From: Parcubacteria group bacterium
GTDB lineage: Bacteria > Patescibacteriota > Minisyncoccia > Moranbacterales > UBA2206
Direction: 5' to 3'
Assembly: GCA_041674205.1 (NCBI GenBank)
Contig: JBAYWF010000004.1
Coordinates: 26,721 to 90,720, forward strand
Length of the DNA: 64,000 nucleotides
The position numbers and the translations under genes were made by a program. The notes beneath the pieces were generated by a model. The model had not been told where the DNA came from. It did not search any database and saw only the letters and a list, made by a program, of their open reading frames with translations. Positions 14,468 to 43,946 of this stretch are shown one piece after another (the stretch's first letter is position 1; each line of letters opens with the position of its first letter).

Positions 14468-14478
14468 TTTCAAAAGAT

Positions 14479-15063: not shown

Positions 15064-15064
15064 T

Positions 15065-28191: not shown

Positions 28192-29736
28192 TCAGGCCGC
28201 GGATATTGCCGCACGTATGGCTCTTATTTCTCCCGTCTTCAGATCCAGTTCGACCTCATCCCCGTCCTGCAGAATCCGCGTAGCGTTTTTCGTACCGATG
28301 ATGGCCGGCAAGCCGAGTTCGCGTGAAACGATCGCCGCGTGGCACGCCAAGCCGCCCTCATCGGTGATTATCGCGATGGCTTTTTTCATAAGCGGCACAA
28401 ACTCGATCCTGGTCATGCTGGTCACCAAAATCCTGCCCGCTTCAAAATCACTTTTGTCCGGACGCAGGATTATGCTCACAATCCCTCTGATTTTTTCTTG
28501 GCCGCCCCGGCTGGCTACCACGCCCATCAATCCGCTTGCAGATTCGATCTTGCTTGCCAACCCGAATAAATCCCTGGCCTCATCGCCGAAAAAAATGTTC
28601 CGCTTGCCATGCTCGAATGCCAAGAATACGCCCGACTCCCTTTTTGCGATAATCAACGGATCGACTCGCACGTCCTTTTCCAGCAAATCAAACAATTCTT
28701 CCATAAAATACGCGGTGCAGGTGTGATAATCGATTTTTTTGCGTTCCGTGATTTCCCGCAGCATGGAATAGATGTAATAGAATTGCTTCATCATTCCCGA
28801 TTTCCTTTGATCAAACCACAAAATTGCCTTTTGGGAAAATTCAATATCCATCAAATCAACCTCTCTTAGGGCATAGCGCTTTTTAAGTTCATTTTTACTA
28901 GCATGGATATTTGAGAAATTATCTTCTATTTTAGCCAGTTCATTTTCCAGGTCGGCTTCGTTTTTTATTTTTAATTCATTTTTAACTTCATCCCTCAATG
29001 AATATCCATCTACACGCGTCGCCTCATAAAAATTCGTTTTAATCCAGAAAAAATCCCGTATATATTTATCGACTAGCGGTTGGACATTTTTATCTTCCCA
29101 CGCTTTAGCGAAATCATCATTCCCAGAACTATGGATTTTCCGGTTAACCGTCAGACATATTTCAAAAAAATTCTTTCGTTCCTGATTGAAAACCGCCATC
29201 TCATCCGGATGCGCCAACACGCTCACCGCTTCCCGCGCATCTTCATAGCTGATGCCATGGCGTTTTTGGAATCGCGGCACCACTTCCCAATTGACTACCT
29301 CCGCTTTGTCTTCGCCGGTAGCGGCACATTTCCACCACTCATAGGCCAGCTCGTTTATTTTCCTAAAATATCCAGCGAATTCAGCGTCTGGAATTCCCCC
29401 TTCCGCCCTTTCCAGATATTCCAACCCCAAGCGGTCGATTTCTAGAGCCAATTTTTGTTGGGCTTGGATTTTGTTCCGCATACCCTCCGGGTTTTCCAAA
29501 TAATCTTCGTAAAACTTTTTGGAAACCTTTTTGATATCGTCCCGTGAAATCAATTGGTAGAAAACGTCCGCCCCTTGGCCGAAATAGCAATGCACGTGAT
29601 CATAATCGACTCCGGTGATTTCCGCCGAATCCGAATAGGCCCGGAAAACCCAATCGGCCGCGTTGAAAGCCGCCCGGGCGCTTTGCACGTCGATTTCATT
29701 TTCCGCCAGATATTTTTTCAATTCTTGCGCGTCCAT
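28192..29736 (-). CDS. Phosphotransferase paralog 1: variable N-terminal domain (~400 aa) + C-terminal PEP-utilising-enzyme phosphohistidine swivel domain
   Basis: C-terminus GVVASRGG...[48 protein letters not shown] matches the PEP-utilisers mobile domain. The conserved His codon falls at about 28339-28341. No ATP-grasp or PEP-binding barrel. Confidence 0.7.
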
Positions 29737-29737
29737 A

Positions 29738-31159
29738 TTATTTTATTATTTTTACCAATCCATGATTCGCCTTGACTTCCACCAGCATTCCGTCTTTCAA
29801 AACCTTGGTCGCGATTTTTGTGCCGATGACGGCCGGAATGCCAAGCTCGCGCGCCACGATGGCCGCGTGGCAAGTTATACCACCTTCATCCGTCACAATA
29901 GCGGCAGCTTTACGCAAAGCAGGAATAAATTCAGGACGAGTCATAGAAGAGACCAAAATATCGCCCTCCTCCACTTTGTCTATGGTTTTAATGTCCTTGC
30001 AAATAATCACTCGTCCGATAGCGGTTCCAGCATTGGCAGTCGTGCCGTGTAAATCCATTCCGAAATCATGCTTAGCCGCTTCTTTTTCCTTTTTAATTCT
30101 AGCATACTCCGCATAATCCCCGCCTATGGATTTCTTTTCTCCCTGTTCATCCACAAGAAACAATACGCCCTGGGTCCTTTCCGTCAGCTCGCCTTCCATA
30201 TCCTTCATTTTTCCAATCGTTTCCATTCCCATGACATCATCCACTCCCAGGTAGGATAGCAGATGGCTGGCGACTCCCATCCTTTGCGCCAATTCATCCA
30301 TAATAATGCCTAGATTGCTGATAGCTCTCAAAATATTTTCTTTCCTTTCGTCCTGCCAGACCGTACAAAAATCGATTATTCCGATCATCTCTTTCAGTTC
30401 CGGACCCAAATCCATACTAGGCATATTCTCTTGTTTCGAAGAAATTTCTTTTTTATCAACCATGCTAGCTATCCTTTCCTTGAGCGAAGCAATAGTGATT
30501 TTTTTCGGACCGACATAGCTGTTTTGGATCCAAAAATATCTTTTCAAATGCGCTTCGAGCGCCGCTTCAAATTCCGCGCCTTCCAAGGACATGGTTTTTT
30601 TAAGATCGTTTTCTTCCCTGGCTATGAAAGAGATTTCCGTAGGCGCCGTTATGGCGGCGAAATACTTATTGAAACTTTTTTTATCCTCAAGGGAATCGAA
30701 TAATTTTTCCTTCAATTCTTTCTCCAGTTCCATGCCGATTCCTTCCAGCACATGGGCGATGCCTACGGAATCAGTCATAGCTTCCAAACTTTTTTTGAAA
30801 TGGTCCAAAAGCCCCACGTCGTCCATCAGAGCCACCTCTCCAGCTCCGACGCTATCAAACATCTCCCGATGTTTTTTAAAAATTTCTTCGTACCGGTTTT
30901 TAATCTTAACCAGATAATCATTGTCTTCCCCGATCTTCTTCTTCGCCTGCATCCAAACGTCGGCCAGATCGCTTTGCAAATAGCCGTATTCGCAATAATC
31001 ATCCTGGTAACTGCAAATGAAACCGGAATATCCATATCCCAGATGTTTTTTCATCGGCACCAGGCTTGCGGCGCAAGAGTTCAAAAAAATCGGCACGCCG
31101 TTGAATCCTTGGATATACCAATCCTTTTCCAGTGCCATTTCCAGATCTTTTTTGTCCAT
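29738..31159 (-). CDS. Phosphotransferase paralog 2: variable N-domain + phosphohistidine swivel domain
   Basis: C-terminus GTAIGRVIICKD...ILVSSMTRPEFIPALRKAAAIVTDEGGITCHAAIVARELGIPAVIG. The N-domain shares a YFWIQNSY-type motif with paralog 1 (YFWIKTNFY) but is otherwise divergent. Confidence 0.7.
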   Translation of the reverse strand: MDKKDLEMALEKDWYIQGFNGVPIFLNSCAASLVPMKKHLGYGYSGFICSYQDDYCEYGYLQSDLADVWMQAKKKIGEDNDYLVKIKNRYEEIFKKHREMFDSVGAGEVALMDDVGLLDHFKKSLEAMTDSVGIAHVLEGIGMELEKELKEKLFDSLEDKKSFNKYFAAITAPTEISFIAREENDLKKTMSLEGAEFEAALEAHLKRYFWIQNSYVGPKKITIASLKERIASMVDKKEISSKQENMPSMDLGPELKEMIGIIDFCTVWQDERKENILRAISNLGIIMDELAQRMGVASHLLSYLGVDDVMGMETIGKMKDMEGELTERTQGVLFLVDEQGEKKSIGGDYAEYARIKKEKEAAKHDFGMDLHGTTANAGTAIGRVIICKDIKTIDKVEEGDILVSSMTRPEFIPALRKAAAIVTDEGGITCHAAIVARELGIPAVIGTKIATKVLKDGMLVEVKANHGLVKIIK

Positions 31160-31171
31160 ATGTTTTTTTTA

Positions 31172-31813
31172 TTAAGACTGAAGATTTTTCTCCGCCTCGA
31201 TCAAATCATGCAAACTTCCGATTTCAACATAGCCCTCTTTCGCCCGCAAACCGTCGCCATCATTCAGGATGTGGTATAGGCGGTAGCCGAAATCGCCGGC
31301 TTCTTTTTTGACTTCTTCGGCGGCCTCCGCGAAGTTTCCGCAATTTTTGAGTTTGTCATCGGTATACACGACCGTCCGGAACCCTTCGGCATATTTTTTC
31401 CGCAAATAATCCAGAAGCATCTCTTTGGTTTTCACGTTCGTTTCGGCATAATCGAAAGTCGAGTTTATTTTTTTGAAAAACTTCCGCACATCAAATCCGA
31501 TCCGCGGGGTGAGATATTCCGCCCGCCAGTCGATCTGTTCCGGGTTGCCTTGCGTGAAAACCTCGCTGTGCTGCGCCCATTCCAAAACTTCCTGCGCGCC
31601 CGGCATCAGATCAAGCTTGAAATACCAGCCTTCGCCATAAGGTATTTTATACATTTCTTCCTCTTCCCGCGCGGAAATACCGTCCATTTTTCTGCCAAGT
31701 TCGTTTTCCAGCCAATCATAATAGCCGGCAAATCCGGTTTTCTCCGCGTCCCATTCCTCCCGGAAAATCGTCCCGGCCAGATCCCAAAGATACAATGTTT
31801 TATTATTTTTCAT
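31172..31813 (-). CDS. Hypothetical protein with weak HAD-like features
   Basis: LYLWDLAGTIF resembles a degenerate HAD motif I (second Asp absent). TVVYTDDK is motif-IV-like. Assignment is weak. Confidence 0.3.
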   Translation of the reverse strand: MKNNKTLYLWDLAGTIFREEWDAEKTGFAGYYDWLENELGRKMDGISAREEEEMYKIPYGEGWYFKLDLMPGAQEVLEWAQHSEVFTQGNPEQIDWRAEYLTPRIGFDVRKFFKKINSTFDYAETNVKTKEMLLDYLRKKYAEGFRTVVYTDDKLKNCGNFAEAAEEVKKEAGDFGYRLYHILNDGDGLRAKEGYVEIGSLHDLIEAEKNLQS

Positions 31814-32393
31814 CTATTTCTCTAATTAATTTTTTTATATCTTTAAAAATTATCACTTTCATTCCCGCCAATATGGCGCCTTCCACCCTGTCCGGGCGAT
31901 CATCGACATAGATAGCCTCCCCTCCGGATATCCCGGCTTGGGCGAGAGCATAGTCAAAAATTTCTTTTGCCGGCTTGCGGATATGCAGATCACCCGACAC
32001 CGCGATGATATCGAAAATGCCGTTCCATCCGAAGTTATTGGAAAAATATTCGAACCATTCCTTGGGATTATTGGAAATGACGCCGATTTTATATTTTTTC
32101 TTCAAGGTCCTAATATAATCCACGAGCTCGGTATTTTGAACGAAGCCCCCAAGTACGGATTCCCGTAATCGATTTACATCCAGCCCATTCTTAAAATTCT
32201 TACTTACCTCATCGAAATATTCTTTTTCAGAAATTTTACCCAGCGTAAAATCCTTCCAGTATGGAAAATCGCGCATTGCCGCGTAAAGACTGCCTGGCGC
32301 CAAGGAATTATCCTTTTCATATTCCCTGATTCCGGAGATAAACCCCTCTTTTACCAGGACATTTCCCGAATCAAAAAAAATCGCTTTTATCAT
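31803..32393 (-). CDS. HAD-superfamily hydrolase-fold protein (subfamily IA-like, variant motif I)
   Basis: IFFDSGNVL (motif I, second Asp replaced), IGVISNN (motif II), K...YVDDRPDRVEGAILAGMKVIIF (motifs III/IV). Confidence 0.55.
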   Translation of the reverse strand: MIKAIFFDSGNVLVKEGFISGIREYEKDNSLAPGSLYAAMRDFPYWKDFTLGKISEKEYFDEVSKNFKNGLDVNRLRESVLGGFVQNTELVDYIRTLKKKYKIGVISNNPKEWFEYFSNNFGWNGIFDIIAVSGDLHIRKPAKEIFDYALAQAGISGGEAIYVDDRPDRVEGAILAGMKVIIFKDIKKLIREIDEK

Positions 32394-32399
32394 ATGGTT

Positions 32400-33899
32400 T
32401 TAACTTGTAGCCCGTTCAATGATTTTTATCACGCCTGTTTTGGCATCCACTTCCACTAGATCATTATCATGGATTATCCTCGTGCCGTTTTTCGTATCCA
32501 TCACGCAAGGAACGCCTAGTTCCCTCGATACGATCGCCGCATGCGAAGACAATCCGCCCTGATCGGCTATTATAGCTGCCGCCTTTTCCATCGCCACCAC
32601 GAAATCCGGGGTAGTGAATTGGGCGACCAATATATCGCCCTTGTTTACTTTCGGGATATCCTTTTTGTCCAGGCAAATTTTCGCCCTTCCGCGAATAATC
32701 CCTCCCGAACATGCCACTTTGCCTTTTAGCTCCTCGGATTTTACGACATCGACGAAATAATCTTTTTCCATTTTTTTTATTTCTTCCGGATCGGTAATCA
32801 GCCGCGTCTTTGAATTACGGACGATCATAGCATAATTGGAATGCCTCCGCGCCATTTCTTCCGCATCGGGCAATACCTTGCCTTCCAGGGCGCCAAACAT
32901 TTCCTCATCCGTGATTTCCATGATTTCATCCGGATTGAAATTAGATCTTCGGGCGATTTCGGAATAGAGAAAACTCGCTCCAAAATCAGCATTGAAGAAA
33001 GCTTCTACGCGCCTATTGCGCAAATATGAATGATGTTTGGCCTTTCTGATTATTTCCAGAAAGTCAGGCTTAGGTTTTATCTTATCCAGCGCCGCTTCAT
33101 AGTCCGCCTCCACTTTTTCTTCCGAAGCGTTATAGTCCATCTCGTCCAATTTCATTCCATCGTCCACCTGTTTTTTTATTTCTTTCAAGCGATTGATTAT
33201 GTCCTCAAAAGAATAGGGCCGGCTAGTAGCCAATCCCCTGTTTATATAGGCGTATTTATCCAGATGATCATCGATAATATTCCTAGCCTCAGCCGATAAT
33301 CCATCCAGATCCTCCATTTTTTCAAAAAAATCCTTCGCAATCGCCAATAGAGCTATCCTTTCCTGGCTCACTTCGGTCGCTTTTTCCGGATCGGTAAACG
33401 TCAGCACTAGGTTCCTGAATCCAGAATCGCTAGAAGGGATGTATTCCGCCAAATTGTTCTCAATCGCGTTCTCAAAATACTCATCCAGTGGATATTGCGC
33501 ATACCAGGCGCCGACCAGACTCCTATATTTATTCAATATATCAGCCAAGGATTCCTTCAACTCAGAATTGTCTTTTTCTTTCCAATTGATTTTTTTAAGT
33601 TCTAATCCTTTTTTATACAGATTCTCGCATTCTTCCAATTCTCTTTGGCAATACCGCTCAAACCAACCATCATTAGCCTTAAGATGATCAATCACTTCTT
33701 TTTCGAAACTGTTATATTCCGACGCCTCCCAATACATCATATGGTTCAAGAATGTGCGGTTGCAAAGCACGGTTTTAATTTCGACTTTGCTAGCATCCTC
33801 CTTGTTAAAAGCAGAATTTATCATAAAACGCAAGAAAATCGGAAGTTTTCCCGAAGGTTTGATCCTCCATTTCCCCGAATGCATGACCGCTGATGACAT
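32400..33899 (-). CDS. Phosphotransferase paralog 3: variable N-domain + phosphohistidine swivel domain
   Basis: C-terminus KGKVACSGGIIRGRAKI...[46 protein letters not shown]. Confidence 0.7.
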   Translation of the reverse strand: MSSAVMHSGKWRIKPSGKLPIFLRFMINSAFNKEDASKVEIKTVLCNRTFLNHMMYWEASEYNSFEKEVIDHLKANDGWFERYCQRELEECENLYKKGLELKKINWKEKDNSELKESLADILNKYRSLVGAWYAQYPLDEYFENAIENNLAEYIPSSDSGFRNLVLTFTDPEKATEVSQERIALLAIAKDFFEKMEDLDGLSAEARNIIDDHLDKYAYINRGLATSRPYSFEDIINRLKEIKKQVDDGMKLDEMDYNASEEKVEADYEAALDKIKPKPDFLEIIRKAKHHSYLRNRRVEAFFNADFGASFLYSEIARRSNFNPDEIMEITDEEMFGALEGKVLPDAEEMARRHSNYAMIVRNSKTRLITDPEEIKKMEKDYFVDVVKSEELKGKVACSGGIIRGRAKICLDKKDIPKVNKGDILVAQFTTPDFVVAMEKAAAIIADQGGLSSHAAIVSRELGVPCVMDTKNGTRIIHDNDLVEVDAKTGVIKIIERATS

Positions 33900-33917
33900 A
33901 TGATTGTAATTAAAAGA

Positions 33918-34868
33918 TTATTTTGCTGATTCTTTAGAATTTTTCCATTCCTTATACTTGCCCACCAATGCCAGAAATTTATTTTTGTCGATAAAAACTT
34001 TGCTTTCCGCCGGTCGGCTGCCACCCTCGAACCTGACCGGTATTTTATCCGGCAGATCGTTCGGATTTTTGATATCCAAATAGATCGATTCGTTGGTATC
34101 GATAAAACCGCCAAAGTCCTCGTTTTCAAAATCGGAAATCGGTCCTTCCTGGCCATCCGCTCCCAGCATAACGCCCGCCTTCTTCAACAAGGCCTCCATG
34201 AACATGCCATGCGTAACAGTATTCAATACGGCATCCTTTTTAACATTGGAATCATCCCCACCCCGGTATCGCCTATCATATCTTCCCGCTATTTCAAATT
34301 CGTGATTCAATTGTTGCGCTAACCCCATAGCCATCCGGGTTATCACCTCATCGTTTTCTTCCCTTAGGATATATCTGAATCCGACCGCTTGGTTTTTGGC
34401 CCGGATCGGTGCGATTTTTTCTTGGTCGGGCAATTTCGTAAGGTCGACTTTCAATTTTCCATTTTCATCCCTTTCAGTCGACTCGCCTAATTCCCGCAGG
34501 GTTTCTTCATTGATCAAATCAGCAGCTTTCCCTAGCTGTTTTTTCAAATCCGGATTCAATATCCCATATTGGATATCCTCGACTTTGCGCGTAGCATATT
34601 GCTTCCCGGTCAATTCCGACTTGATGCCGCTTTTTTCAGAAATGAGATCGCCAGTAATAAAAGCTCGGTCGCTTTTTTCATCACTGGCATAGGCCTTCAG
34701 CACCTCGGCCTCTTCTCCGATTTGCCCGCCCTTCCCACTTGCGTTTTCAATGCCCTCGGGAGAAAGTTCACCTGAAGCCAGCCTTTCCGCGTGCCTTGTG
34801 ATCATAAAGACATATGTGGGTTCTTTTTCAAATGTTACTTCTTTAGGGCCGCCTTCCTTGAAACTCAT
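33918..34868 (-). CDS. Histidine-phosphatase-superfamily protein (phosphoglycerate-mutase-like branch)
   Basis: VFMITRHAERL gives the RHG-type catalytic motif (R-H-A-E). Confidence 0.5.
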   Translation of the reverse strand: MSFKEGGPKEVTFEKEPTYVFMITRHAERLASGELSPEGIENASGKGGQIGEEAEVLKAYASDEKSDRAFITGDLISEKSGIKSELTGKQYATRKVEDIQYGILNPDLKKQLGKAADLINEETLRELGESTERDENGKLKVDLTKLPDQEKIAPIRAKNQAVGFRYILREENDEVITRMAMGLAQQLNHEFEIAGRYDRRYRGGDDSNVKKDAVLNTVTHGMFMEALLKKAGVMLGADGQEGPISDFENEDFGGFIDTNESIYLDIKNPNDLPDKIPVRFEGGSRPAESKVFIDKNKFLALVGKYKEWKNSKESAK

Positions 34869-34902
34869 AAATTTATTCTTAAATATTTATGTTTTTATTA
34901 TA

Positions 34903-36381
34903 TCACGATTTATTCAATATTCTCACGATCCCCATATCCGCATCCACTTCCACCAAGTCCCCGTCATGCAAAATCTGCGTCGCAATTTTGGTGCCGATGA
35001 TGCAAGGGATTTTCAGCTCACGGGAAATTATCGCAGCATGCGAAGTTATACCACCCTCGTCAGTTATTATAGCTGAAGCTTTTTTCATAAGCGACACGAA
35101 TTCCGGCCGGGTCATGCCAGTTACCAATATTTCGTTTTTCAAAAAATAATTTCTTTGCGCCCGATAGCTATGTATAACTCGCACTCTGCCTTGCACCTTT
35201 CCAGGTGATCCAACACTCCCCTTAATAATATTTCCTCCATATTTTTCTAAGGATTGTTGTTGTAAATAATAATCATTGATCTGTTTTTTAACGTCTTCGT
35301 GCTTTCCGATATTTTCTATCATTTTACCACCCTTATCTATAAATACCGAATATTCAGGAAAACGCGCTTGTACTATGTGGCTTATGGAAGAAATATATTC
35401 AGATCCTTTCAAGACTTCATGAAAATGAGTATACGGAATATATTTTTCTCCTACAGCACACTGAGCGAATATTTTTTGCGCAAATCTATATGTAACAGTT
35501 GTAAAGCGAGCCATAGAATCCTTCCTTACATCTCTTAATTTCATAATTGCTTGTATATATTCAACGAGTTTTATTTCTTCCGAGGAAAGAGTCCTGATCC
35601 ACCGCGCATATTCTTGTCGCCTTTCTTTTTCAGCATCAATATCCCGCCTAAGGATATCGTCGATTTGGGCTAATGAAAAATCACCGAAATCTTTTTTTAA
35701 ATTTGACGCGACTTCTGACGCGGATTTGATATGGTCATAATGGGCTTCAAAAAACTGGCATTTTTCCCCTATTTTCTCCCAAGAACAACCTTCCTTTATC
35801 ATATTGATAAGTATATGTCTCCTTCTGATATCAAACGAATGGGAAACGGGCCATGTCGCATTCTCCCAAAGGGATCGCACCCTATCCGGATTTATATCGC
35901 TTTTCACTTGTTTGAGAAATCCCAGACACATCCGCTCATCAAATGCGATGGAAAAAAATAGCGCTGCGTTCATATCCCATACCGCGTCTCTTATGGCAAT
36001 CACATCGTCTTTGATTTCAGACTCCTGCTTCAACGCGATGTAATGATATGTGAGTTTTTCATAAATTTCCGATATCTTATCATCAAGCCTATGAAAAATT
36101 TTAAATCGTTGATCCAATATGTCCTGGCCTTTCCAATGTCTCAGAAAAATTTCCTCGGAATGCCGTTGCGCCTGCGAAAAATGATAGTAATAAATACCCT
36201 CTTTAGAATTCATCGTGACAACAAGCGGGAATGACAAATCATCATCATAATACTTTTTAAAGTATTTTCTAGTATTCCATCCGCTTGACTGGACAATCAT
36301 AGCGCCATTGTATAAGGCCGGAGAAATTTCCTCATTTCGTGACGCCCGCGTAAATAATTGTGCCACACCATATGTTTCCAT
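34903..36381 (-). CDS. Phosphotransferase paralog 4: variable N-domain + phosphohistidine swivel domain
   Basis: C-terminus GSVGSPGKVQGRVRVI...[72 protein letters not shown]. Confidence 0.7.
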   Translation of the reverse strand: METYGVAQLFTRASRNEEISPALYNGAMIVQSSGWNTRKYFKKYYDDDLSFPLVVTMNSKEGIYYYHFSQAQRHSEEIFLRHWKGQDILDQRFKIFHRLDDKISEIYEKLTYHYIALKQESEIKDDVIAIRDAVWDMNAALFFSIAFDERMCLGFLKQVKSDINPDRVRSLWENATWPVSHSFDIRRRHILINMIKEGCSWEKIGEKCQFFEAHYDHIKSASEVASNLKKDFGDFSLAQIDDILRRDIDAEKERRQEYARWIRTLSSEEIKLVEYIQAIMKLRDVRKDSMARFTTVTYRFAQKIFAQCAVGEKYIPYTHFHEVLKGSEYISSISHIVQARFPEYSVFIDKGGKMIENIGKHEDVKKQINDYYLQQQSLEKYGGNIIKGSVGSPGKVQGRVRVIHSYRAQRNYFLKNEILVTGMTRPEFVSLMKKASAIITDEGGITSHAAIISRELKIPCIIGTKIATQILHDGDLVEVDADMGIVRILNKS

Positions 36382-36394
36382 ATTGAATATGATA

Positions 36395-37882
36395 TCACGA
36401 ATTTATTTTTAATATTCGAACTGTCCCGCGATCCGCATCCACCTCCACCAAATCCCCGTCGTGCAAAATTTGCGTCGCGATTTTGGTGCCGATGATACAA
36501 GGTTTTTTCATTTCTCGAGCGACGATAGCCGCGTGGCAAGTGACACCGCCTTCGTCTGTCACAAAAGCAGAAGCTTTACGCATAGCCGGAAGATAACTAG
36601 GCTTGGTCATATGCGCGATCAAAATATCCCCTGCCTTCACTTTCATCAAATCTTGCTCGTTGTTTAAAACTTTTACTGCGCCCCTTGCGATCCCATGCGA
36701 GGCCACCACTCCCATAATTTCAGTTTTCACATCTCTAACCAAAGATTTCTTGCCAATTTCCCGCCCGATTATTTTCTCCGCTTCCGTGCCGACATGATAA
36801 TTCTCCTTGCCGTCACACATCCACATAAATGTTCCATCCCTATGGGATACTTCCCTAAAATCAAAATTTTTACCGCCCACCAAGTCCTTGTATTCAGAAA
36901 ATTTCATAAAATACCGCGCCTCTTTTGGAACATCAAATCTCCTAATCACCTCCTTGAATAAAATATTTATATACTGATGGGATCTAGTATATATGCCATC
37001 CCTATATTCCTTTAAATAAATAATTTTTCTCAATGCGGAAAATAAATCATGATGCCTCTTATCAATATTCAATTTATTTTCTATGTCTTTTATATTTTTC
37101 GCGATTTCTTTCTTTCCAGGAAGAGTGGACAATCCCTTTTCCGATAAATCCTTTAATCTCGGAATAAAATCCCCCGGCTCCATTATGGGCCCAAGAAATT
37201 GATAACCCAATGACTGCCAACCGAATTTCTCCGCATGCTTCTTTAATGCCAACGACGCTTTGGTTCCTGAAATAGATTCCCCCTTTCTGATCATTTTCAC
37301 GATCTTCCAAAGATTTTCATCACTTAATCTGGCCCAAGACTTTCCCGGATTGTAGGCAAGCTTAGAAAAATATTCTCCGAGTTTATTTTCTTCGCCCGCG
37401 TCTTTTAATTTTGATTTCAAATACGGGATTACTTCATCCTCAATGGCAAAGGTGGCGATTACCGGAATATATGTATATATGGCTAAATTTTCATAGGCTT
37501 TTTCAAAATCACTCAAATATTTCAAAAGTTCCTTATCACCTTTACTAGAAAAGTCGATTTTAGAAAATTTTTTGCTATACGCTATCAGGTTTCGGCCATT
37601 TTTAAAATGATATTTTTCCAGTCTGTCTAAAAAATTCGTTTCTTTTTTTATTTCTCTCAAGAAAAATTTGGCAAAATTATCCAAATCCTGTTGTTTCCAA
37701 TATATGGATATTTTATCGCCCTCCCATAAATAAATATGTCCGAGATAGGTTTTGGCAAATTTCTTAAATGCCGGATGGAAAGGATGCGCGCTATCCCGCA
37801 AGTTGCAATATGAAACCGCAATTCCCTCCCGCTCCGTCCAAAGCCACCATTTGGATTTATTTTTAGATCTGGTTTTCTCCAT
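36395..37882 (-). CDS. Phosphotransferase paralog 5: variable N-domain + phosphohistidine swivel domain
   Basis: C-terminus GVVASHGIARGAVKVL...ILIAHMTKPSYLPAMRKASAFVTDEGGVTCHAAIVAREMKKPCIIGTKIATQILHDGDLVEVDADRGTVRIL. Confidence 0.7.
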   Translation of the reverse strand: MEKTRSKNKSKWWLWTEREGIAVSYCNLRDSAHPFHPAFKKFAKTYLGHIYLWEGDKISIYWKQQDLDNFAKFFLREIKKETNFLDRLEKYHFKNGRNLIAYSKKFSKIDFSSKGDKELLKYLSDFEKAYENLAIYTYIPVIATFAIEDEVIPYLKSKLKDAGEENKLGEYFSKLAYNPGKSWARLSDENLWKIVKMIRKGESISGTKASLALKKHAEKFGWQSLGYQFLGPIMEPGDFIPRLKDLSEKGLSTLPGKKEIAKNIKDIENKLNIDKRHHDLFSALRKIIYLKEYRDGIYTRSHQYINILFKEVIRRFDVPKEARYFMKFSEYKDLVGGKNFDFREVSHRDGTFMWMCDGKENYHVGTEAEKIIGREIGKKSLVRDVKTEIMGVVASHGIARGAVKVLNNEQDLMKVKAGDILIAHMTKPSYLPAMRKASAFVTDEGGVTCHAAIVAREMKKPCIIGTKIATQILHDGDLVEVDADRGTVRILKINS

Positions 37883-37896
37883 AATTTATAAAATCT

Positions 37897-38991
37897 TTAT
37901 TCCTCGCTCGCTCTCTTTAAAATTTTAACCACCCCCTTATCCGCGTCCACTTCCACTTCATCACCCGTTTTGAATGAGAGCGTCGCGTTAACCGTATTTA
38001 CGATACAGGGGATATTAAGCTCCCGCGACACGACTGCCGCATGGGAAAGCATTCCTCCGGTATTCGTAACGATCGCTGCCGCTTTTTTACATAACAATAG
38101 GACCTCCGGGCTGGTAGTCTCCGCTATTAGAATATCTCCCTTTTTCATTATTTTATCAATCTCCATAATCTGCTTATGATTATCGAACATCGGAACCACT
38201 ACAGCTTTTCCCGAAACCATCCCCCTGCTCGCGCTAACGCCTTTAACAATTTTCCTATTCACCCTTTCAGCAAATCGATCAAAAATATTTTTGGCTTCTT
38301 GATATGGGAATACCGCCAGCTTTCCCTTATGGTTTGTAGCCGCATAACATTTTTCTCTTCGTTCATAATCTTTTGGCGGCATATGTCCGTCAAAAAGCCC
38401 TCTTATCTCATCGGTGTAAAGATACTCGGCTTTCACGTCGTATTTCCTGGAAAAATATTTATAAATATTTTCCAAGACACCGCCCCTGAAATAATAGTCG
38501 TTCATAATTTCCCGGACTTCGAATTTAAATCTACCAGCATAATCCAAGTTTTTCTTTATGACCTTATTATCGTTCTTTTGAGCCACGGCATATGCATATT
38601 CTTGGAAATAGGCTTCTAAAAATCCATATCTTTTCCATAATAATCCCATGAAGTTTCTTGCATCAATGAATTCTTCTTTGGTTAAATTTTCGGGAACTTT
38701 TTTAAAATCTTTAATTATCCCTGACTTCGCTTCTCGTATATATTCCTTATATTCCTCAATATATCCATTAAATTCTTCCTGATTTCCATATAGCTCCAAC
38801 CCTTGTTCCGCCCAATCTTTTTCATGTCGACGGCTTATATATGAATAAAATACCATATTTTGGTTCATGACAAGCATATCTTGTCCCAGTGGACCCTCCA
38901 GAAGAAATTCACTATGCATACATCCGATAAGCCCGTCTGTACGGAAATATTTAATGAAATCTTCCGGATTCAATTGGTTTGGGTTTATCAT
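37897..38991 (-). CDS. Phosphotransferase paralog 6 (short N-domain, ~260 aa) + phosphohistidine swivel domain
   Basis: C-terminus GVSASRGMVSGKAVVV...ILIAETTSPEVLLLCKKAAAIVTNTGGMLSHAAVVSRELNIPCIVN. Confidence 0.65.
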   Translation of the reverse strand: MINPNQLNPEDFIKYFRTDGLIGCMHSEFLLEGPLGQDMLVMNQNMVFYSYISRRHEKDWAEQGLELYGNQEEFNGYIEEYKEYIREAKSGIIKDFKKVPENLTKEEFIDARNFMGLLWKRYGFLEAYFQEYAYAVAQKNDNKVIKKNLDYAGRFKFEVREIMNDYYFRGGVLENIYKYFSRKYDVKAEYLYTDEIRGLFDGHMPPKDYERREKCYAATNHKGKLAVFPYQEAKNIFDRFAERVNRKIVKGVSASRGMVSGKAVVVPMFDNHKQIMEIDKIMKKGDILIAETTSPEVLLLCKKAAAIVTNTGGMLSHAAVVSRELNIPCIVNTVNATLSFKTGDEVEVDADKGVVKILKRASEE

Positions 38992-39005
38992 ATATTTATT
39001 TACAG

Positions 39006-39830
39006 TTAATCATTCAATTCCACTTTCTCGCCCCTTCTCGCTATGGCGATGCTATTTTCTGAGACGTCGATTTTTATAGCTTCACAATTCTTAATTTCAT
39101 GATCGCCAAAATATTCATTTAAAGCATAGGCTATATAATTTTCATGTCCGAATGCCATAACTTTTATATTTTTCCCAGACCCGCTCTCCTTGATTTTATC
39201 ATGACCAAACCTTATCAACCTTAACAAATTTTTAAAATTGACATCAAACGTATCTTTAGCTGATTTTATTTCAGGGAAAAATTTTTTTAATTCTTCCGAG
39301 TAGTGAAAAAAATTAGCCCCCCAATTCCCATAATTTTTATTTTCTACAATTTTTCGAGCTTCCTCCCATTTCTTCCTGGCTTCAGCTGGAACTTTTTCCC
39401 AGTCTACATCCACGGACCGTGTCGGCATAAAAAGATATTGGACAAGAACATTGTCTATGCGCAATGACAAGTTTTTTATCTTCCTTATTCTCCCCTCACT
39501 AACTTCGTCTGAATACGCGCTTCTTGAACGTTTAGGACATACTATTTCGAAGCCTTTTCTTTCAGCAACCTTCATATATATGCTGGCCGTATCCATCGCT
39601 CTCACTTGCCCGCTAGACACAAAGAATAATCCATCATCATCGGGGTTAAATTCCGATAATAATTTTTCTGCCTCTTGCTCCGCCAAAATAATTCCTTCTT
39701 TTGATAAATCATTCTTTTCTTGCTCGCTTTCCTCAATAGGGCCCTGAGGATTATCAGAATCTAATATTTTTTTATAACTCTTATATTCTGAAATGCTATG
39801 GCGCACACCGTAAATTTCACTTTTTTCCAT
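39006..39830 (-). CDS. Histidine-phosphatase-superfamily protein
   Basis: IYGVRHSISEY (RHG-type motif) and MAFGHENYI (second catalytic His region). Confidence 0.5.
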   Translation of the reverse strand: MEKSEIYGVRHSISEYKSYKKILDSDNPQGPIEESEQEKNDLSKEGIILAEQEAEKLLSEFNPDDDGLFFVSSGQVRAMDTASIYMKVAERKGFEIVCPKRSRSAYSDEVSEGRIRKIKNLSLRIDNVLVQYLFMPTRSVDVDWEKVPAEARKKWEEARKIVENKNYGNWGANFFHYSEELKKFFPEIKSAKDTFDVNFKNLLRLIRFGHDKIKESGSGKNIKVMAFGHENYIAYALNEYFGDHEIKNCEAIKIDVSENSIAIARRGEKVELND

Positions 39831-39834
39831 AAAT

Positions 39835-40047
39835 TTATTTGTCTTCCGATTTTTTAATTATCCTCACAATCCCCTTATCCGCATCCACTTCCACCAGATC
39901 CCCGTCACGCAAAACTTGGGTGGCGATTTTGGTGCCGACGATACAAGGGATTTTGAATTCCCGCGCCAGCATCGAGGCGTGGCAAAGCATTCCGTCCTCA
40001 TCGGTCACGATCGCTTTTACTTTTTTCTTAAAATATAAATGGGCCAA
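39835..40047 (-). pseudogene. Orphan 3-prime fragment of a phosphohistidine-swivel-domain gene (C-terminal ~60 residues only)
   Basis: Encodes ...KAIVTDEDGMLCHASMLAREFKIPCIVGTKIATQVLRDGDLVEVDADKGIVRII behind a short non-homologous leader. Overlaps the 3-prime end of the methyltransferase paralog at 40017-40838 by about 30 nt. Confidence 0.6.
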
Positions 40048-40838
40048 TATCTGGGATCGAAGTATTTATCGGTTATGTATTTAACGTCTTCAATCAGATA
40101 ATATTTATTAAAAATATTTTCCAAATTGTCCCTTAGCGGCAATCTGATTTTCAGGCTGCTCGGTTTAATAAATCCAAGCATCGTCTTAAGTTCCGAATCA
40201 TCAATAATCCGTTTTCCGCGCATATCGCGCAACTTCGATAATATTCCGGACGGCGTATAGGATCCTTTTTTCCGCCCTATTGAAAGCGCCAGGTCCGGGT
40301 AAGCCATCATAAAAAGCGTTTTTTTGCCCGTCTTGATTCGCAGTTTCCTGTATCTTTCAAACCCATCAGCCGGATTGACTTCTTTGCGTACCGGACGTAT
40401 TACCGCGGTAGTCGCGAATATCCCGCCCGGCTTCAAATTGTCGGCAATATTTTTTACAAAAAAGCTTTGTTTATTTATCGGGATCATATTGATAACGTTA
40501 TGGCCCATTATCAAATCAAATCCACGCGCATCATCCAGCTCAAGCCAATCAGACTCAATGAATAATTCTTTTCCATCCCTTTTCATCAAAATCCTCAGCG
40601 CCTCATACACCTCCGAATTCACATCACAACAAATCGGCGTTATTTTATGCTTCAAAAGCAAATCACGGAATTCCGGCGTCGACCCCAAAATTAAAATCCT
40701 CGGCTTCTTATTACCTGCAAGAACCTTTCTGATGATTTTTTCGTATATAGCCATTTCCAACCCTGGCCTGACGGGCGCGGCATAATTTTTCCAATCTTTT
40801 GCCAATTGTTTGTTCCAAGGAAGTTTTTTTTCAGTCAT
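40017..40838 (-). CDS. Methyltransferase-fold paralog 7 (same family as the 8.6-14.1 kb array)
   Basis: VRPGLEMAIY, ILILGSTPEFRDL, ICCDVNSEV, FDLIMGH, LKPGGIFATTAV. Confidence 0.5.
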   Translation of the reverse strand: MTEKKLPWNKQLAKDWKNYAAPVRPGLEMAIYEKIIRKVLAGNKKPRILILGSTPEFRDLLLKHKITPICCDVNSEVYEALRILMKRDGKELFIESDWLELDDARGFDLIMGHNVINMIPINKQSFFVKNIADNLKPGGIFATTAVIRPVRKEVNPADGFERYRKLRIKTGKKTLFMMAYPDLALSIGRKKGSYTPSGILSKLRDMRGKRIIDDSELKTMLGFIKPSSLKIRLPLRDNLENIFNKYYLIEDVKYITDKYFDPRYWPIYILRKK

Positions 40839-40857
40839 ATCTATATATAACTAATTA

Positions 40858-40900
40858 TTTCGCGCCCACCTCCGCCAGATCCCCATTCTGCAAAAAATCG
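40858..40900 (-). repeat. Remnant of the conserved 3-prime terminus of a swivel-domain gene (...LQNGDLAEVGAK*), immediately downstream of the GGCT-like gene
   Basis: cgcgcccacctccgccagatccccattctgcaaaaaatcgc parallels the 3-prime ends of paralogs 4/5 (cgcatccacctccaccaaatccccgtcgtgcaaaatttgcg). Confidence 0.5.
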
Positions 40901-40903
40901 CAT

Positions 40904-41446
40904 TCAATCAATCTGGTGCTTCCTCCTATATTCTTCATAATCTCTTGCCGCGACTTTCAAAATAGCATCTTTCGGGACTAAATAATCTTCATAATCCCCA
41001 TTTTCAATCACCCTATCCGCCGGCATATCCGGCGATAATGACCCGTGCGTGATAATATTGACGATTTTTCCTTCTGAATCCATCGCAATGGCTTTGATAT
41101 CTTCCTGCATACCATATTCCAGCAATTCCCAATCCCTAACCAATCCATATTCTTCTTCTGTCAGTTTCCAAATCGTACCATAAGTGACGGCGTTAACTTT
41201 TGGCCTGATAATATATAACTCAAAATTATCATCAAAAGCCTTGGAAACGATTTCGCGCGGAGAAAGCCTGGATGGCGCCGTCCCAATTATTTCTCCCGGT
41301 ATATCATCGATTTTTTGGACACACAGCTCAAAGCCCAGTAATTTTCCCTTAACGCCTTCGATTTTTTCACGGCCAACCATAGCAGACATCATCTCCAAAT
41401 CGCGATTAGTGCCATAGCCGAAATAATCCAATAGTTGCTTCTTCAT
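40904..41446 (-). CDS. Gamma-glutamyl cyclotransferase-like (GGCT/AIG2/BtrG fold) protein
   Basis: N-terminal YFGYGTNRD matches the YFAYGSN signature of the GGCT fold. Confidence 0.5.
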   Translation of the reverse strand: MKKQLLDYFGYGTNRDLEMMSAMVGREKIEGVKGKLLGFELCVQKIDDIPGEIIGTAPSRLSPREIVSKAFDDNFELYIIRPKVNAVTYGTIWKLTEEEYGLVRDWELLEYGMQEDIKAIAMDSEGKIVNIITHGSLSPDMPADRVIENGDYEDYLVPKDAILKVAARDYEEYRRKHQID

Positions 41447-41465
41447 AGCGTTTGTTTTGATTTAA

Positions 41466-42344
41466 TTAATTCAAACTTAATTCTTTGCCTTGTATTTCAC
41501 AGGATGCCTTGCCGCGCTTATCGATTCCGATGGAAATGCCAGCGCCTTGATCGACTGGCAAATATTTTTTCATGTCTATCCCGGCAATATGCCTTTTGAT
41601 AAAAGGGCTTATGGAATCATAATGGCTTACCGCCCAGATGATTAATCGCCTGTCAGGATTAGCCTTGTGATATTCATCAGCTATCTGCGCCTGTAATGAA
41701 AGCGCGTAATTAACCCGGTCAGCTATTCCATCCGGACCTTCCGCACCCATCTCTACACGAGTCTCCCTTTCCGAATCTGATTCATACGCATCCCAAAATT
41801 CCACCCCGGTTCCATATTTATCTATCAAAAATTGCGTAAATTCTGGTGACTCTTCCAATATCATCAAGTCCCTCAGTTCTGAAACTTCAATAGCTCCGCC
41901 GTTTTGAGCGGCTGAATTATTCAACAATTGTCCATCCGCAATAAAAAATTCCGACATAGATTCCCTGAGCCCCGTCATTACCTGACCGGCAGTTTCCACC
42001 GCCCTCTGATGCTTATTTTTTATTCCATCGGGAGTGGACAATGTCGAATCGCTGGCAATCACCATCACATCGATCATTTTTCTCTCTTCCTCATTTAAAC
42101 CGCCAAATATCTTATTGAAAAATTCCTTGGCGTTCACTCGCACTTGTTCTGCCGCGCCAACTTCAAGCGCACCCATATCTGGCGAGTCTTTGCGCCTATC
42201 GTCTTTGGCGTTGCGCTGCAAAACGATTGTCGAGCCGCCGATTTCAGGCATTTTTGGATGGAGATCTGCCGATGTGATTCTTTCTATTTCAACCTTCCCG
42301 CCTTCGTTATGAAAAATTTGATTCGGCCATTCATTCATAAACAA
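41466..42344 (-). CDS. Hypothetical protein, possibly a degenerate histidine-phosphatase-like fold
   Basis: RLIIWAVSHYDSISP resembles the second-His region of histidine phosphatases, but the RHG motif is not evident (IVLQRNAKD). Confidence 0.3.
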   Translation of the reverse strand: MFMNEWPNQIFHNEGGKVEIERITSADLHPKMPEIGGSTIVLQRNAKDDRRKDSPDMGALEVGAAEQVRVNAKEFFNKIFGGLNEEERKMIDVMVIASDSTLSTPDGIKNKHQRAVETAGQVMTGLRESMSEFFIADGQLLNNSAAQNGGAIEVSELRDLMILEESPEFTQFLIDKYGTGVEFWDAYESDSERETRVEMGAEGPDGIADRVNYALSLQAQIADEYHKANPDRRLIIWAVSHYDSISPFIKRHIAGIDMKKYLPVDQGAGISIGIDKRGKASCEIQGKELSLN

Positions 42345-42353
42345 TTTAATTTT

Positions 42354-42893
42354 TTATTTATTAATATCCTTAGCCAGATAATCCGCCGCCTCTTCTATGG
42401 AATCAAAAATAGGCACTCCTTTCTCTTTCCATTTTGAAATCCAATTCCTGTGTCCCATAACCTGCCCTAGCCGATCAGAAGTCGCCCCGCCATCATAGTT
42501 CGTTTCTTCTCTCTTTTTGATAAATGATTTATGCTTCTCCCATTCGGGCACGACTACCGCATCCGGCCTAAGCCAATTATTAGAAGCGCCCATAATCCAC
42601 AAACCTTTTTCTATGGCCCGCTTTGTCACTTCATCACTTCGCCTATCGATTTCATCCATCACATCTTCGCTTTCCAGCCACCATGCCCTTTTCGGATGAG
42701 CGCCTGATTTTTCCCATAATTTATCGCCATCGATCCAATTTTTGTCCTTTTGCCTATCTACAAAATATGTTTTACCGGCACCGGATGGAGCAACGATAAA
42801 AAGCCCTGACTTGTGCCTGACGAATTCTTTTAAAAACAGCTCTATCGCCTCAGCAATCTGAGAATCATCCAATGGCTCCAGATCATATACCAT
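42354..42893 (-). CDS. P-loop kinase/NTPase (small-molecule or nucleotide kinase-like). The ORF track extends it to 42974 through an upstream swivel-domain remnant
   Basis: Walker A LFIVAPSGAGKTYFV. Probable start MVYDLEPLDD at 42893. The upstream in-frame codons (MQDGSLVEVDAGVVI) are homologous to swivel-domain C-termini. Confidence 0.5.
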   Translation of the reverse strand: MVYDLEPLDDSQIAEAIELFLKEFVRHKSGLFIVAPSGAGKTYFVDRQKDKNWIDGDKLWEKSGAHPKRAWWLESEDVMDEIDRRSDEVTKRAIEKGLWIMGASNNWLRPDAVVVPEWEKHKSFIKKREETNYDGGATSDRLGQVMGHRNWISKWKEKGVPIFDSIEEAADYLAKDINK

Positions 42894-42924
42894 ATTTTTT
42901 AATATTAAAATGTTACGCTTTTTT

Positions 42925-42975
42925 AATATTATCACAACTCCCGCATCCACTTCCACTAGACTCCCATCCTGCAAA
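42925..42975 (-). repeat. Remnant of the conserved 3-prime terminus of a swivel-domain gene (QDGSLVEVDAGVVI), in frame with the P-loop kinase ORF
   Basis: caactcccgcatccacttccactagactcccatcctgcaaaac parallels the paralog 3-prime ends. Confidence 0.5.
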
Positions 42976-42998
42976 ACCTAAATGAATAATCCTAATCC

Positions 42999-43946
42999 CT
43001 AATTTTTCAAAGTCGTAATCGGCCGGCTTTGGACGATGTGAAATTTTCCACTTTCATAAGCCCACTCGATATCGCACGGAAAACCGTAATGTTTTTCGAT
43101 ACCCAAGATTATTTCCGACAATTCCAAAATTTGTTTTTCCGCCAGGACTTGCGCGGACGCTTGCGGCTCGGGAATATTTTTCCATTCGTTGCCGCCGTTT
43201 TGCGCCCGATAGATCCCGCGTTCCTGCGTGGAAACGTTGATGTCTAAAATATTCCTCGGATTTTTTTCCACCACATAACTGTCCGGGGTGATTTGGCCGG
43301 ACACGATCGCTTCGCCGAGGCCATAGCCGGCTTCGATGATGAGTTGATTGCGATCTTCCGTCACCGGGTGCACCGAAAAAGCGATGCCGGAAATCTCGCT
43401 TTCCACCATTTTTTGCACCACCACCGCCACGGAAATTTTTTGTTTATGCAGGTTTTTTTCAAAACGGTAAAAAATCGCGCGCGGTGTGAATAGCGACGCC
43501 CAACAATGCTGGACTTTTTCCAATAAATTATCCTTGGTCGTGTTCAAATAGGAATCCAATTGCCCCGCCCAAGCGTTTTCCGCGCCGTCCTCCGCCGTCG
43601 CACTGGACCGGACAGCCACGAATTCAGCATTCAATTCGGTAAATCTTTTTTTAATTTCTTGCGCGATATCTTCCGGCATCTGCGCCTTTTTAATCAAAGT
43701 CTGGATCTTTTCCGAAGCCTCTTCGACCGTGTGCATCGCATTGTGATCGACAGTATGTAAAACCGCATCCACCTCGACGCCCAAATCGGTTTCCGCTAGA
43801 AATTTCTCGAAAGTCCCGGCCAGAACCACGAAGCCAGGCGGCACCGGGATGCCGGCCTGCGTCATCTCGCCGAGAGACGCTCCTTTGCCTCCGGCGATAT
43901 CGGTATCGCTTTTTGATAAATTTTGAAAAATTCTAATCAGTTCCAT
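42999..43946 (-). CDS. Stand-alone PEP-synthase/pyruvate-phosphate-dikinase N-terminal ATP-grasp (nucleotide-binding) domain protein, ~315 aa
   Basis: IAGGKGASLGEMTQAGIPVPPGFVV near the N-terminus. VAVRSSATAEDGAENAWAGQLDSYLN, AVVVQKMVESEISGIAF and C-terminal CDIEWAYE...HIVQSRPITT match the PPDK_N / rifampin-phosphotransferase ATP-binding domain. No swivel or substrate domain follows. Confidence 0.75.
   Translation of the reverse strand: MELIRIFQNLSKSDTDIAGGKGASLGEMTQAGIPVPPGFVVLAGTFEKFLAETDLGVEVDAVLHTVDHNAMHTVEEASEKIQTLIKKAQMPEDIAQEIKKRFTELNAEFVAVRSSATAEDGAENAWAGQLDSYLNTTKDNLLEKVQHCWASLFTPRAIFYRFEKNLHKQKISVAVVVQKMVESEISGIAFSVHPVTEDRNQLIIEAGYGLGEAIVSGQITPDSYVVEKNPRNILDINVSTQERGIYRAQNGGNEWKNIPEPQASAQVLAEKQILELSEIILGIEKHYGFPCDIEWAYESGKFHIVQSRPITTLKN

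Follow-up and report, generated by a model that had tools for sequence, protein, structure and literature searches.

Three swivel-gene tails in a minus-strand island

We examined a 64,000-nt stretch (hereafter, the window) of contig JBAYWF010000004.1 from a Parcubacteria group bacterium (assembly GCA_041674205.1, positions 26,721 to 90,720 of the forward strand). The window has a G+C content of 44%, and its nearest public relatives are metagenome-assembled genomes of Candidatus Moranbacteria/Parcubacteria. Positions 28192-43946 form a tightly packed minus-strand island, in which one standalone ATP-grasp gene and six genes with a C-terminal swivel domain are accompanied by a HAD hydrolase gene, a methyltransferase-like gene, and several genes without a family assignment. 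Three short segments between these genes resemble the 3' ends of the swivel genes and are the subject of this work. They are denoted as follows (L002 is the corresponding locus of a close relative):

39835-40020, minus strand: rem1, a 3' swivel stub of 61 codons plus the stop TAA (39835-39837), recognized by nhmmer, PF00391, and comparison with L002
40855-40897, minus strand: rem2, a stub of about 13 codons ending in FLQNGDLAEVGAK and a stop, recognized by nhmmer, shuffling, membership in repeat family D1, and an orthologue in L002
42913-42978, minus strand: rem3, a stub of about 20 codons (VLQDGSLVEVDAG--VVIILKK.. to the relic stop GCGTAA), recognized by nhmmer and shuffling

An earlier note on this DNA had placed three remnants at or within a few bases of these positions and had taken them to be homologous to swivel-gene 3' ends. 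Both points were borne out, as alignment to a nucleotide profile, shuffling, and a repeat search agree. An nhmmer profile derived solely from the 3'-terminal 300 nt of the six intact paralogs detected rem1 (40032-39848, profile positions 108-293) with an E-value of 1.2e-40, rem3 (42978-42916, positions 224-294) with 2.7e-6, and rem2 (40896-40859, positions 225-262) with 4.4e-3, while the next-best match after the paralogs and the three stubs had an E-value of 0.06. That match, inside the gene HP316 (34652-34691, minus strand, profile positions 101-138), is unproven and probably a chance one. In the repeat search, the top direct-repeat family (D1) consisted of 39879-39915, 40860-40896 (73%), and 42941-42977 (84%). 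All three stubs are found on the coding strand and keep the register of the paralog tails, and shuffling of the intergenic spacers alone gave nothing as good as rem2 (0 of 500) or rem3 (0 of 500). The Logan assembly of run SRR6484325 was 100% identical to the window over 30904-43342, which covers all three junctions. The identity of this second assembly indicates that the junctions are not assembler-specific chimeras, a possibility that had been raised in the earlier note.

The stubs show significant homology to the intact paralogs and are nevertheless truncated, as all three begin inside the domain and none comprises a complete PF00391 domain (about 72 Pfam positions, 105 in our local profile). 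Protein-level searches missed rem2 and barely detected rem3, which covers positions 83-101 of the local profile only; both lack the catalytic loop altogether and have no in-frame start codon. Taken alone, rem2 is the weakest of the three. Taken together, the three stubs are probably the dead 3' ends of substrate/swivel genes of a split dikinase resembling rifampin phosphotransferase (RPH), left behind by separate deletion or recombination events. Their setting, as far as the sequences compared can tell, is a rapidly rearranging gene array in a Moranbacteria-type genome of the candidate phyla radiation (CPR), and the stubs would add a further case to a well-known phenomenon, that of gene relics within a variable array of paralogs.

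Origin of the individual stubs

Close relatives with conserved flanks were limited to two, L002 (about 84-86% nucleotide identity) and L006 (about 81%); scanning metagenomes with the methyltransferase yielded no closer one, and a scan with the ATP-grasp protein found none above 84%. The genes adjoining the stubs, and the block that follows them, are listed below:

42999-43946, minus strand: standalone ATP-grasp subunit (PPDK_N), 315 aa, PF01326 at E 3e-99
42354-42893, minus strand: P-loop gene (PLK), a 179-aa Walker-A protein, NCBI WC120_03060, starting at ATG 42893 and not at TTG 42974
41466-42344, minus strand: HP292, 292 aa, no Pfam match, orthologue (70% identical) in L006 only
40904-41446, minus strand: "GGCT-like" gene, 180 aa, no Pfam or PDB match, orthologue (75% identical) in L006 only
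40017-40838, minus strand: MT273, class I S-adenosylmethionine (SAM) methyltransferase-like, from weak Pfam methyltransferase matches and the NCBI name; L002 orthologue with 92% nucleotide identity
39006-39830, minus strand: HP274, 274 aa, directly downstream of rem1, His_Phos_1 at E 0.087 only
28192-38991, minus strand: block of six intact "substrate domain + C-terminal swivel" paralogs, PF00391 at each C-terminus
28192-29736, 29738-31159, 32400-33899, 34903-36381, 36395-37882, and 37897-38991, minus strand: the intact swivel paralogs, PF00391 at E 1e-22 to 3e-27
within 28192-38991, minus strand: a HAD gene (31803-32393), a 213-aa gene, and HP316, interspersed among the swivel paralogs

The mechanically called 70-aa open reading frame (ORF) of rem1 extends to a TTG at 40047, inside the upstream gene, and aligned to PF00391 positions 21-72 of 72 with an E-value of 2e-18 (local profile 46-105); the 61 codons of rem1 lack the first 45 of the 105 domain positions. 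An intact counterpart is present in L002, where a 506-aa swivel gene (SW506) stands directly behind the orthologous methyltransferase gene. Along the methyltransferase gene and as far as ...TTTTAAGAAAAAA, the window and L002 share 92% identity; past this point, L002 has the ATG of SW506 and the window has GTAAAAGCGATCGTGACCGATGAGG, which corresponds to the swivel stretch Lys-(Val)-Lys-Ala-Ile-Val-Thr-Asp-Glu. At the junction, rem1 and the end of the methyltransferase gene have a GAAAAAA microhomology (40021-40027) in common, and because the intact swivel genes carry (A/T)TGAAAAAAGC at the position of the rem1 junction, the deleted ~1.3 kb had GAAAAAA on both sides. Such a 7-nt repeat at both ends is the signature of slippage or illegitimate recombination. 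Judged from this comparison, rem1 is the remnant of a full-length swivel gene that lost its 5' ~1.3 kb, from the start codon to the Lys-Lys-Ala codons. The suggestion that the methyltransferase gene had replaced a swivel paralog at this site does not hold, since L002 contains both the methyltransferase and the intact swivel gene and the window junction is that of a microhomology deletion.

The comparison of rem1 with SW506 gave a dN of 0.128, a dS of 0.649, and a dN/dS of 0.20, as against 0.000-0.080, 0.12-4.1, and 0.00-0.02, respectively, for three intact orthologous swivels. The swivel catalytic loop has the motif TxxGGxxxH (T/SxxGGxxxH), with the phospho-carrier His (PMC12167813). In rem1, the loop reads TDEDGMLCH, with GG changed to DG and the His kept, and HAAI reads HASM, the changes affecting otherwise invariant positions. 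By these measures, rem1 is under relaxed constraint and is gathering damaging substitutions. The rem1 ORF is called by NCBI as a 70-aa "PEP-utilizing enzyme" coding sequence (CDS; MFA7209237.1) and has no gene call in the Logan annotation; an exact look-up of the ORF on contigs gave no record. The GenBank entry MFA7209237.1 corresponds to a truncated gene piece in decay, for which a pseudogene flag would be more fitting.

The stub rem2 occupies the gap that separates the 180-aa gene, with its stop TGA at 40904-40906, from the methyltransferase gene, which starts at ATG 40838. In L002, an orthologous stub at ~11000-11045, between the ATP-grasp and methyltransferase genes, is longer and more degenerate (ending in NSAEVGAKRGLG and two stops). 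The 17-mer GCGGAGGTGGGCGCGAA is common to rem2 and the L002 stub and occurs in no other of 163 loci. Since this 17-mer is shared in the same place ahead of the methyltransferase gene, rem2 appears older than the split of the window and L002; by this comparison, it was already present in their common ancestor and travels with the methyltransferase gene. A replacement by cargo, as had been proposed, is contradicted here, because the stub predates the split and precedes the methyltransferase in both genomes. Within 70 nt, rem2 and the L002 stub differ by a 6-nt and a 16-nt indel, whereas the adjoining gene is 92% identical without indels. To judge from these differences, rem2 evolves like neutral DNA. 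No intact counterpart of rem2 or rem3 at the same position was found in the related genomes compared.

The third stub, rem3, begins 20 nt past the TAG of the ATP-grasp gene in the same frame, and its alignment reaches the relic stop GCGTAA (42918-42913), 20 nt before the ATG of the P-loop gene at 42893. It differs from the intact tails by two indels and gave an E-value of 0.005 in a search limited to the spacers behind standalone ATP-grasp genes in frame 0. On these alignments, the standalone ATP-grasp gene is immediately followed by a swivel stub, rem3. An in-frame fusion of rem3 to the P-loop ORF had also been described; this was found to be a mechanical, TTG-started ORF only, as both public gene calls, those of NCBI and Logan, give the 179-aa form from ATG 42893, and the 206-aa P-loop form that would include rem3 was absent from the protein collection. 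The ATP-grasp gene, rem3, and the P-loop ORF share one frame with two TAGs between them, and joining by stop-codon recoding was considered and rejected, because TAG ends 12 of the 59 genes. A tRNA search within the window returned none. Homologs of the P-loop gene numbered 133 at E ≤ 1e-5, and the 120 listed were 150-273 aa long, mostly 171-197 aa. The nearest of them are located in unrelated genomic contexts, so that no parent gene for rem3 is to be sought there.

Turnover of the array and competing explanations

The upstream flank of the island, GT-LCP-S41-ATP-grasp, is common to the window, L002, and L006. Downstream, L002 has HP316-SW499-HAD-unk213-SW473-SW514 like the window, and the L006 locus ends at HP316. 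The middle of the window reads rem3-PLK-HP292-GGCT-rem2-MT-rem1-HP274-SW364-SW495-SW492, that of L002 reads degenerate stub-MT-SW506, and that of L006 reads PLK-HP292-GGCT-275-nt spacer (weak stub and methyltransferase stub)-PLP enzyme-MTx3-SW529-SW498, where PLP denotes pyridoxal phosphate. This comparison of the syntenic locus upheld the description of the island as a dynamic array, as everything between the conserved flanks differs among the three genomes, and the same evidence marks the island as a hot spot where genes are gained and lost. The weak stub-like match behind the L006 GGCT gene is unproven, with 8 of 500 shuffles being as good.

Within L006, the PLP enzyme and three methyltransferase genes (10897-15222) lie inside the island right behind the GGCT-like gene and correspond to the module at 7177-14064 of the window. 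They are preceded by a 3' methyltransferase relic (ending in NRALTCYKIYFGQVKK and two stops), which corresponds to the C-terminus of the window gene at 13192-14064. This suggests that relics are not special to swivel genes and that the PLP-methyltransferase module was relocated or inverted.

Ahead of HP316, orthology between L002 and the window sets in again at the very end of a swivel gene, about 25 nt short of its stop: SW506 of L002 and SW492 of the window have the same final 25 nt (25 of 25) and the same spacer behind them, and the N-terminal domains of the two are unrelated. This junction fits a crossover inside the conserved swivel tail. Upstream of the last 25 nt, SW506 is somewhat closer to rem1, with a left-segment identity of 79% to rem1 versus 76% to SW492, and its informative sites divided 18:13 between rem1 and SW492 to the left of the putative crossover and 0:7 to the right (uncorrected p 0.009). 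These counts are suggestive only; SW506 may be a hybrid of the rem1 parent and SW492, formed by a tail crossover that deleted four genes in L002, and a clean-hybrid origin was not accepted on this basis.

Signs of exchange between lineages were seen at two further places. The SW499 gene (window 32400-33900, L002 14405-15904) is 95-97% identical at the nucleotide level with a swivel dS of 0.12, and its neighbors are 71-90% identical with a dS near 1; the island is presumably a mosaic through recent exchange of the SW499 segment. L002 and L006 stem from one sample series; over the equivalent of window 44400-43500, their identity is 89-95%, versus about 82% elsewhere. This patch spans the 3' end of the S41 gene and the 5' two-thirds of the ATP-grasp gene, points to recent homologous exchange between co-occurring lineages, and is consistent with the insertion from a related lineage considered below for the window.

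To place the stubs in a wider context, we surveyed 161 loci (1.94 Mb in all, with the duplicate assembly L001 left out), containing about 330 intact swivel domains. The protein profile detected few partial swivels away from contig ends, all of them 3' ends, and no 5'-only swivel fragment was present in the surveyed loci apart from contig ends and one frameshift. Three further 3' stubs were recognized:

L003, 13620-13700 (81 nt): 90% identical to rem1, behind an AbiEi/AbiEii pair
L014 (identical to L091), 10952-11020: in frame behind a standalone ATP-grasp gene
L101, about 20040-20120: behind an HP274-like gene

The 3' bias may be due in part to ascertainment, since only the swivel end is conserved enough to be recognized, and in part to selection, because a start-less 3' piece is silent and persists harmlessly. 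In L003, the AbiEi-like/AbiEii toxin-antitoxin pair (12139-13504; PF08843, E 3e-22) is an insertion between a fused ATP-grasp-X-swivel gene and the next swivel gene.

For rem2 and rem3, an origin as tail copies of a once-fused ATP-grasp-X-swivel gene would be compatible with the reading of the stubs as dead swivel-gene ends, and we hold it as a tentative sub-hypothesis with somewhat less than even prospects. An in-frame internal deletion followed by a stop codon would turn the fused gene into the standalone ATP-grasp gene of the clade comprising the window, L002, and L006. A piece of DNA from a related lineage, comprising the 3' end of the ATP-grasp gene, the stub behind it, and the PLK-HP292-GGCT trio, would have recombined in upstream of the resident stub (rem2-MT), with ATP-grasp homology as its anchor. 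In each of the window, L002, and the unrelated L014, the stub that immediately follows the standalone ATP-grasp gene keeps the reading frame of this gene, and rem2 and rem3 begin at the same swivel codon (profile position 224/225). The standalone clade is nested among the fused L003, L004, L005, and L082, with a fused root by parsimony; on a neighbor-joining tree built from 135 ATP-grasp domains, of which 97 are joined to X-swivel and 38 are standalone, parsimony required at least 28 fused/split changes. The best nucleotide matches of rem3, rem2, and the L002 and L014 stubs are fused-gene 3' ends, but this ranking discriminates poorly, as the fused-gene tail of L003 ranks near the top for rem1 as well. 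All three stubs would be in frame by chance with a probability of about 0.04, which is less striking if the cases are not independent. Moreover, other standalone genes end in ..TTL(A/S)KK and a stop without any stub, and the stop may be old and the stub derived from a separate downstream gene. The linker between the fused domains gave no homology in support either, as described below. Our literature search found no paper on fused/split switching of ATP-grasp/X-swivel genes.

Several observations weigh against the reading of the three stubs as dead swivel-gene ends left by separate events. The sequence between the ATP-grasp stop and the stub in the window and L002 showed no significant homology to the linkers of the fused relatives, which would have fixed the left end of an internal deletion, as in-register alignment was no better than shifted alignment and the local scores lay within those of shuffles. 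In L006, no stub separates the ATP-grasp gene from the trio that adjoins it. The site counts in the ATP-grasp tail agree with recombination there, since only 1 of 10 informative sites unites the window with L002 over the final ~67 nt of the gene, versus 49 of 79 upstream, but this test for a breakpoint was borderline (permutation p 0.051). With only two close sisters, the order of events for rem2 and rem3 is a reconstruction. The left boundary of the stubs is tight, with five of six beginning within 20 nt of the preceding gene's stop, which is not expected from random deletions and is not fully explained, selection or ascertainment being the only explanations that we can offer. Finally, the NCBI CDS call leaves expression of rem1 conceivable.

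The reading as dead swivel-gene ends nevertheless fared better than the model of the earlier note, in which each stub marks a full-length paralog replaced by cargo through recombination at a conserved 3' "handle", the island being a cassette array that exchanges at this point. We consider this model doubtful. It would account for the complete difference in gene content between the flanks of the window, L002, and L006 and for the resumption of L002 orthology inside the last ~25 nt of a swivel gene with different N-terminal domains; the foreign AbiE pair directly upstream of the L003 stub and the P-loop family, which occurs in unrelated contexts elsewhere and thus behaves as mobile cargo, point the same way, and the perfect 17-29-nt matches in the tails could support homologous exchange. 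However, the methyltransferase at rem1 is no replacement, and rem2 is too old. Homologous recombination at the conserved handle would, moreover, regenerate intact and not truncated swivels, so that the stubs would need an illegitimate event. Recent gene conversion keeping the handle uniform was considered and rejected, as the dS values of the paralog tails within the window are 1.1 to >3 (saturated), and the nucleotide likeness of the tails can be attributed to protein constraint instead of conversion. No integrase, transposase, or recombinase was found among the island genes and those further ORFs of the window, a part of the total, that were scanned, and no attC-like inverted repeats were present at the stubs or the paralog tails. 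Of the model, a crossover in the swivel tail remains plausible, as exemplified by SW506 of L002.

A broader scheme would treat the swivel tail and the ATP-grasp gene as a portable homology anchor, at which new substrate-domain genes and cargo are plugged in by one-sided recombination in CPR bacteria and DPANN archaea. The stubs would be by-products and landing pads, and those behind standalone ATP-grasp genes would be fossils of repeated splitting from fused RPH-like genes. We regard this scheme as rather unlikely. In homology-facilitated illegitimate recombination during the uptake of foreign DNA, reportedly described by de Vries and Wackernagel in 2002, one homologous anchor is combined with one illegitimate join. 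Such a process would explain inserts that are anchored in the ATP-grasp gene or swivel tail and end arbitrarily, as well as a stub duplicated on both sides of the PLK-HP292-GGCT trio, but the breakpoint signal here is the borderline one given above (p 0.051).

It is very improbable that the stubs are functional and kept by selection as recombination sites, as regulatory or RNA elements, or, for rem1, as a small expressed swivel protein. The survival of rem2 since the L002 split and the NCBI call of rem1 would agree with a function, as would the complete standalone swivel ORFs of 96-150 aa in three other loci. On the other side, rem1 lacks 45 of the 105 domain positions, has a broken GG motif, and shows a dN/dS at least 10 times that of the intact copies, and rem2 has accumulated two indels beside a gene that has none. 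A regulatory or RNA role was looked for and rejected: no sigma-70-like promoter or terminator consensus was present on the coding (minus) strand, an Rfam search gave no match at E ≤ 1, and folding compared with shuffles was not unusual (z-scores of -0.07 to -1.3). With the inverted repeats also absent, the stubs show no sign of a present function and can be viewed as neutral relics. The standalone swivel ORFs (L021 13509-13874, L054 8015-8410, and L059 11590-12042) may be free-standing phospho-carrier proteins or recent truncations.

An artefact, either a chance likeness between short, G-rich strings or chimeric joins in the assembly, is scarcely credible in view of the profile E-values and shuffle tests, the common strand and register, the identical second assembly, and the conservation of the rem2-methyltransferase junction in another species from another sample, even though rem2 alone reached only E 4e-3 and protein searches missed it and barely saw rem3.

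Parent genes, known systems, and other features of the window

The six swivel genes encode proteins of 364-514 aa, whose sole Pfam match is the C-terminal PEP-utilising swivel domain PF00391. A profile of 24 swivel proteins aligned to residues 453-867 of rifampin phosphotransferase (PDB 5fbs, 5hv1) with an E-value of 7e-36, suggesting that these genes encode the substrate-binding-plus-swivel half of an RPH-like small-molecule dikinase. Judged by domain content, the island has the layout of a two-component RPH-like dikinase, with a separate ATP-grasp subunit and a subunit composed of the substrate domain and the C-terminal swivel His, and ATP-dependent transfer of phosphate to a small molecule by way of the phospho-His is predicted. 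The intact swivel genes of the array stop 1-34 nt ahead of the next start. Homologs of the ATP-grasp protein, 67-89% identical, were found in 160 CPR/DPANN loci from genomes and metagenomes, where the protein stands alone or is joined to X-swivel. In CPR phyla and DPANN archaea, the standalone form is about 315 aa and the fused ORFs range from 650 to 3181 aa (L073, L080, L041), and the ATP-grasp genes are usually followed by arrays of further X-swivel genes.

Bacterial genomes are known to contain pseudogene fragments left by illegitimate, microhomology-mediated deletion in paralog arrays. The stubs resemble these in being start-less, truncated copies with relaxed constraint, interspecies indels, and a junction at a short direct repeat (GAAAAAA); they differ in that three relics occur within 3.1 kb of a streamlined CPR genome, that all are 3' ends, and that nearly all abut the preceding stop. 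Integron arrays likewise consist of tightly packed, variable genes on one strand, each with a conserved 3' element, and differ in content between close relatives. Here, in contrast, the element is protein-coding and not an attC hairpin, and neither an integrase among the ORFs checked, nor an attI site, nor imperfect inverted repeats were present. Orphan cdiA/rhs toxin-immunity modules are also truncated pieces that keep a conserved stretch and lie in arrays beside the full gene. They keep a conserved 5' handle with a variable 3' toxin and an immunity gene, forming a reservoir of alternative tips, whereas the stubs retain nothing but the conserved 3' part, with no variable cargo attached. Separately encoded ATP-grasp halves are also found in the two-component dikinases HpeHI, CreHI, and PpsAB (PMC12167813). 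The parent genes of the stubs share the layout of HpeH and of single-chain RPH (PMC12167813; 5fbs, 5hv1) and the TxxGGxxxH motif, and an HpeI-like ATP-grasp protein is encoded separately beside them; unlike the 1:1 pairs of those systems, however, one ATP-grasp gene here accompanies six swivel genes and the stubs, and the stubs are not enzymes.

As neutral debris, the stubs themselves matter little, and their value is that of dated footprints. Together with the two sister genomes, they indicate that genes enter, leave, and change places in the array within the time over which species diverge, with short-repeat deletions and homologous exchange between co-occurring lineages both contributing to the turnover. 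Arrays of this type, with one ATP-grasp gene and many RPH-like substrate/swivel genes, are widespread in CPR bacteria and DPANN archaea, and the fused and split enzyme forms appear to have been interconverted many times, as counted above. The more interesting subject is the surrounding system, in which one highly conserved ATP-grasp protein serves many swivel genes and is repeatedly fused and split. These findings provide useful background for working out the role of the unusually numerous dikinases in minimal-genome organisms.

Three gene labels used in the earlier note fared differently. The name "methyltransferase" for MT273 agrees with its NCBI name, class I SAM-dependent methyltransferase, and a paralog at 13192-14064 passes the Pfam threshold, but the best Pfam match of MT273 itself (E 2e-4) lies below the curated cut-offs. 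The "P-loop kinase" has a Walker A motif (APSGAGKT), the sole basis for its label, and no Pfam or PDB assignment. The label "GGCT-like" was not supported, as the 180-aa gene matches no family or PDB entry. HP274 shows a faint similarity to histidine phosphatases and has homologs in five other islands.

MT273 belongs to the same family as the methyltransferase array at 8647-14064 (plus strand). This array consists of six tandem methyltransferase-like paralogs and follows a gene for a PLP-dependent Cys/Met-metabolism enzyme (7177-8625, plus strand), ~26 kb from the island and on the other strand. A PD-(D/E)XK/Cas4-like nuclease gene (22188-23312, plus strand; PF12705, E 1e-35) is located in the window without CRISPR or cas neighbors. 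A PriA-like helicase gene (1-935) is cut off by the start of the window, and the intergenic segment 1766-1831 (minus strand) translates to VKKSAKII-DIVPIARTPSCYDQ, which resembles the N-terminus of the helicase (MEKSAKIIIDIVPIARIPLSRNQ; tblastn E 0.054). This segment may be a 5' relic or a small duplication.

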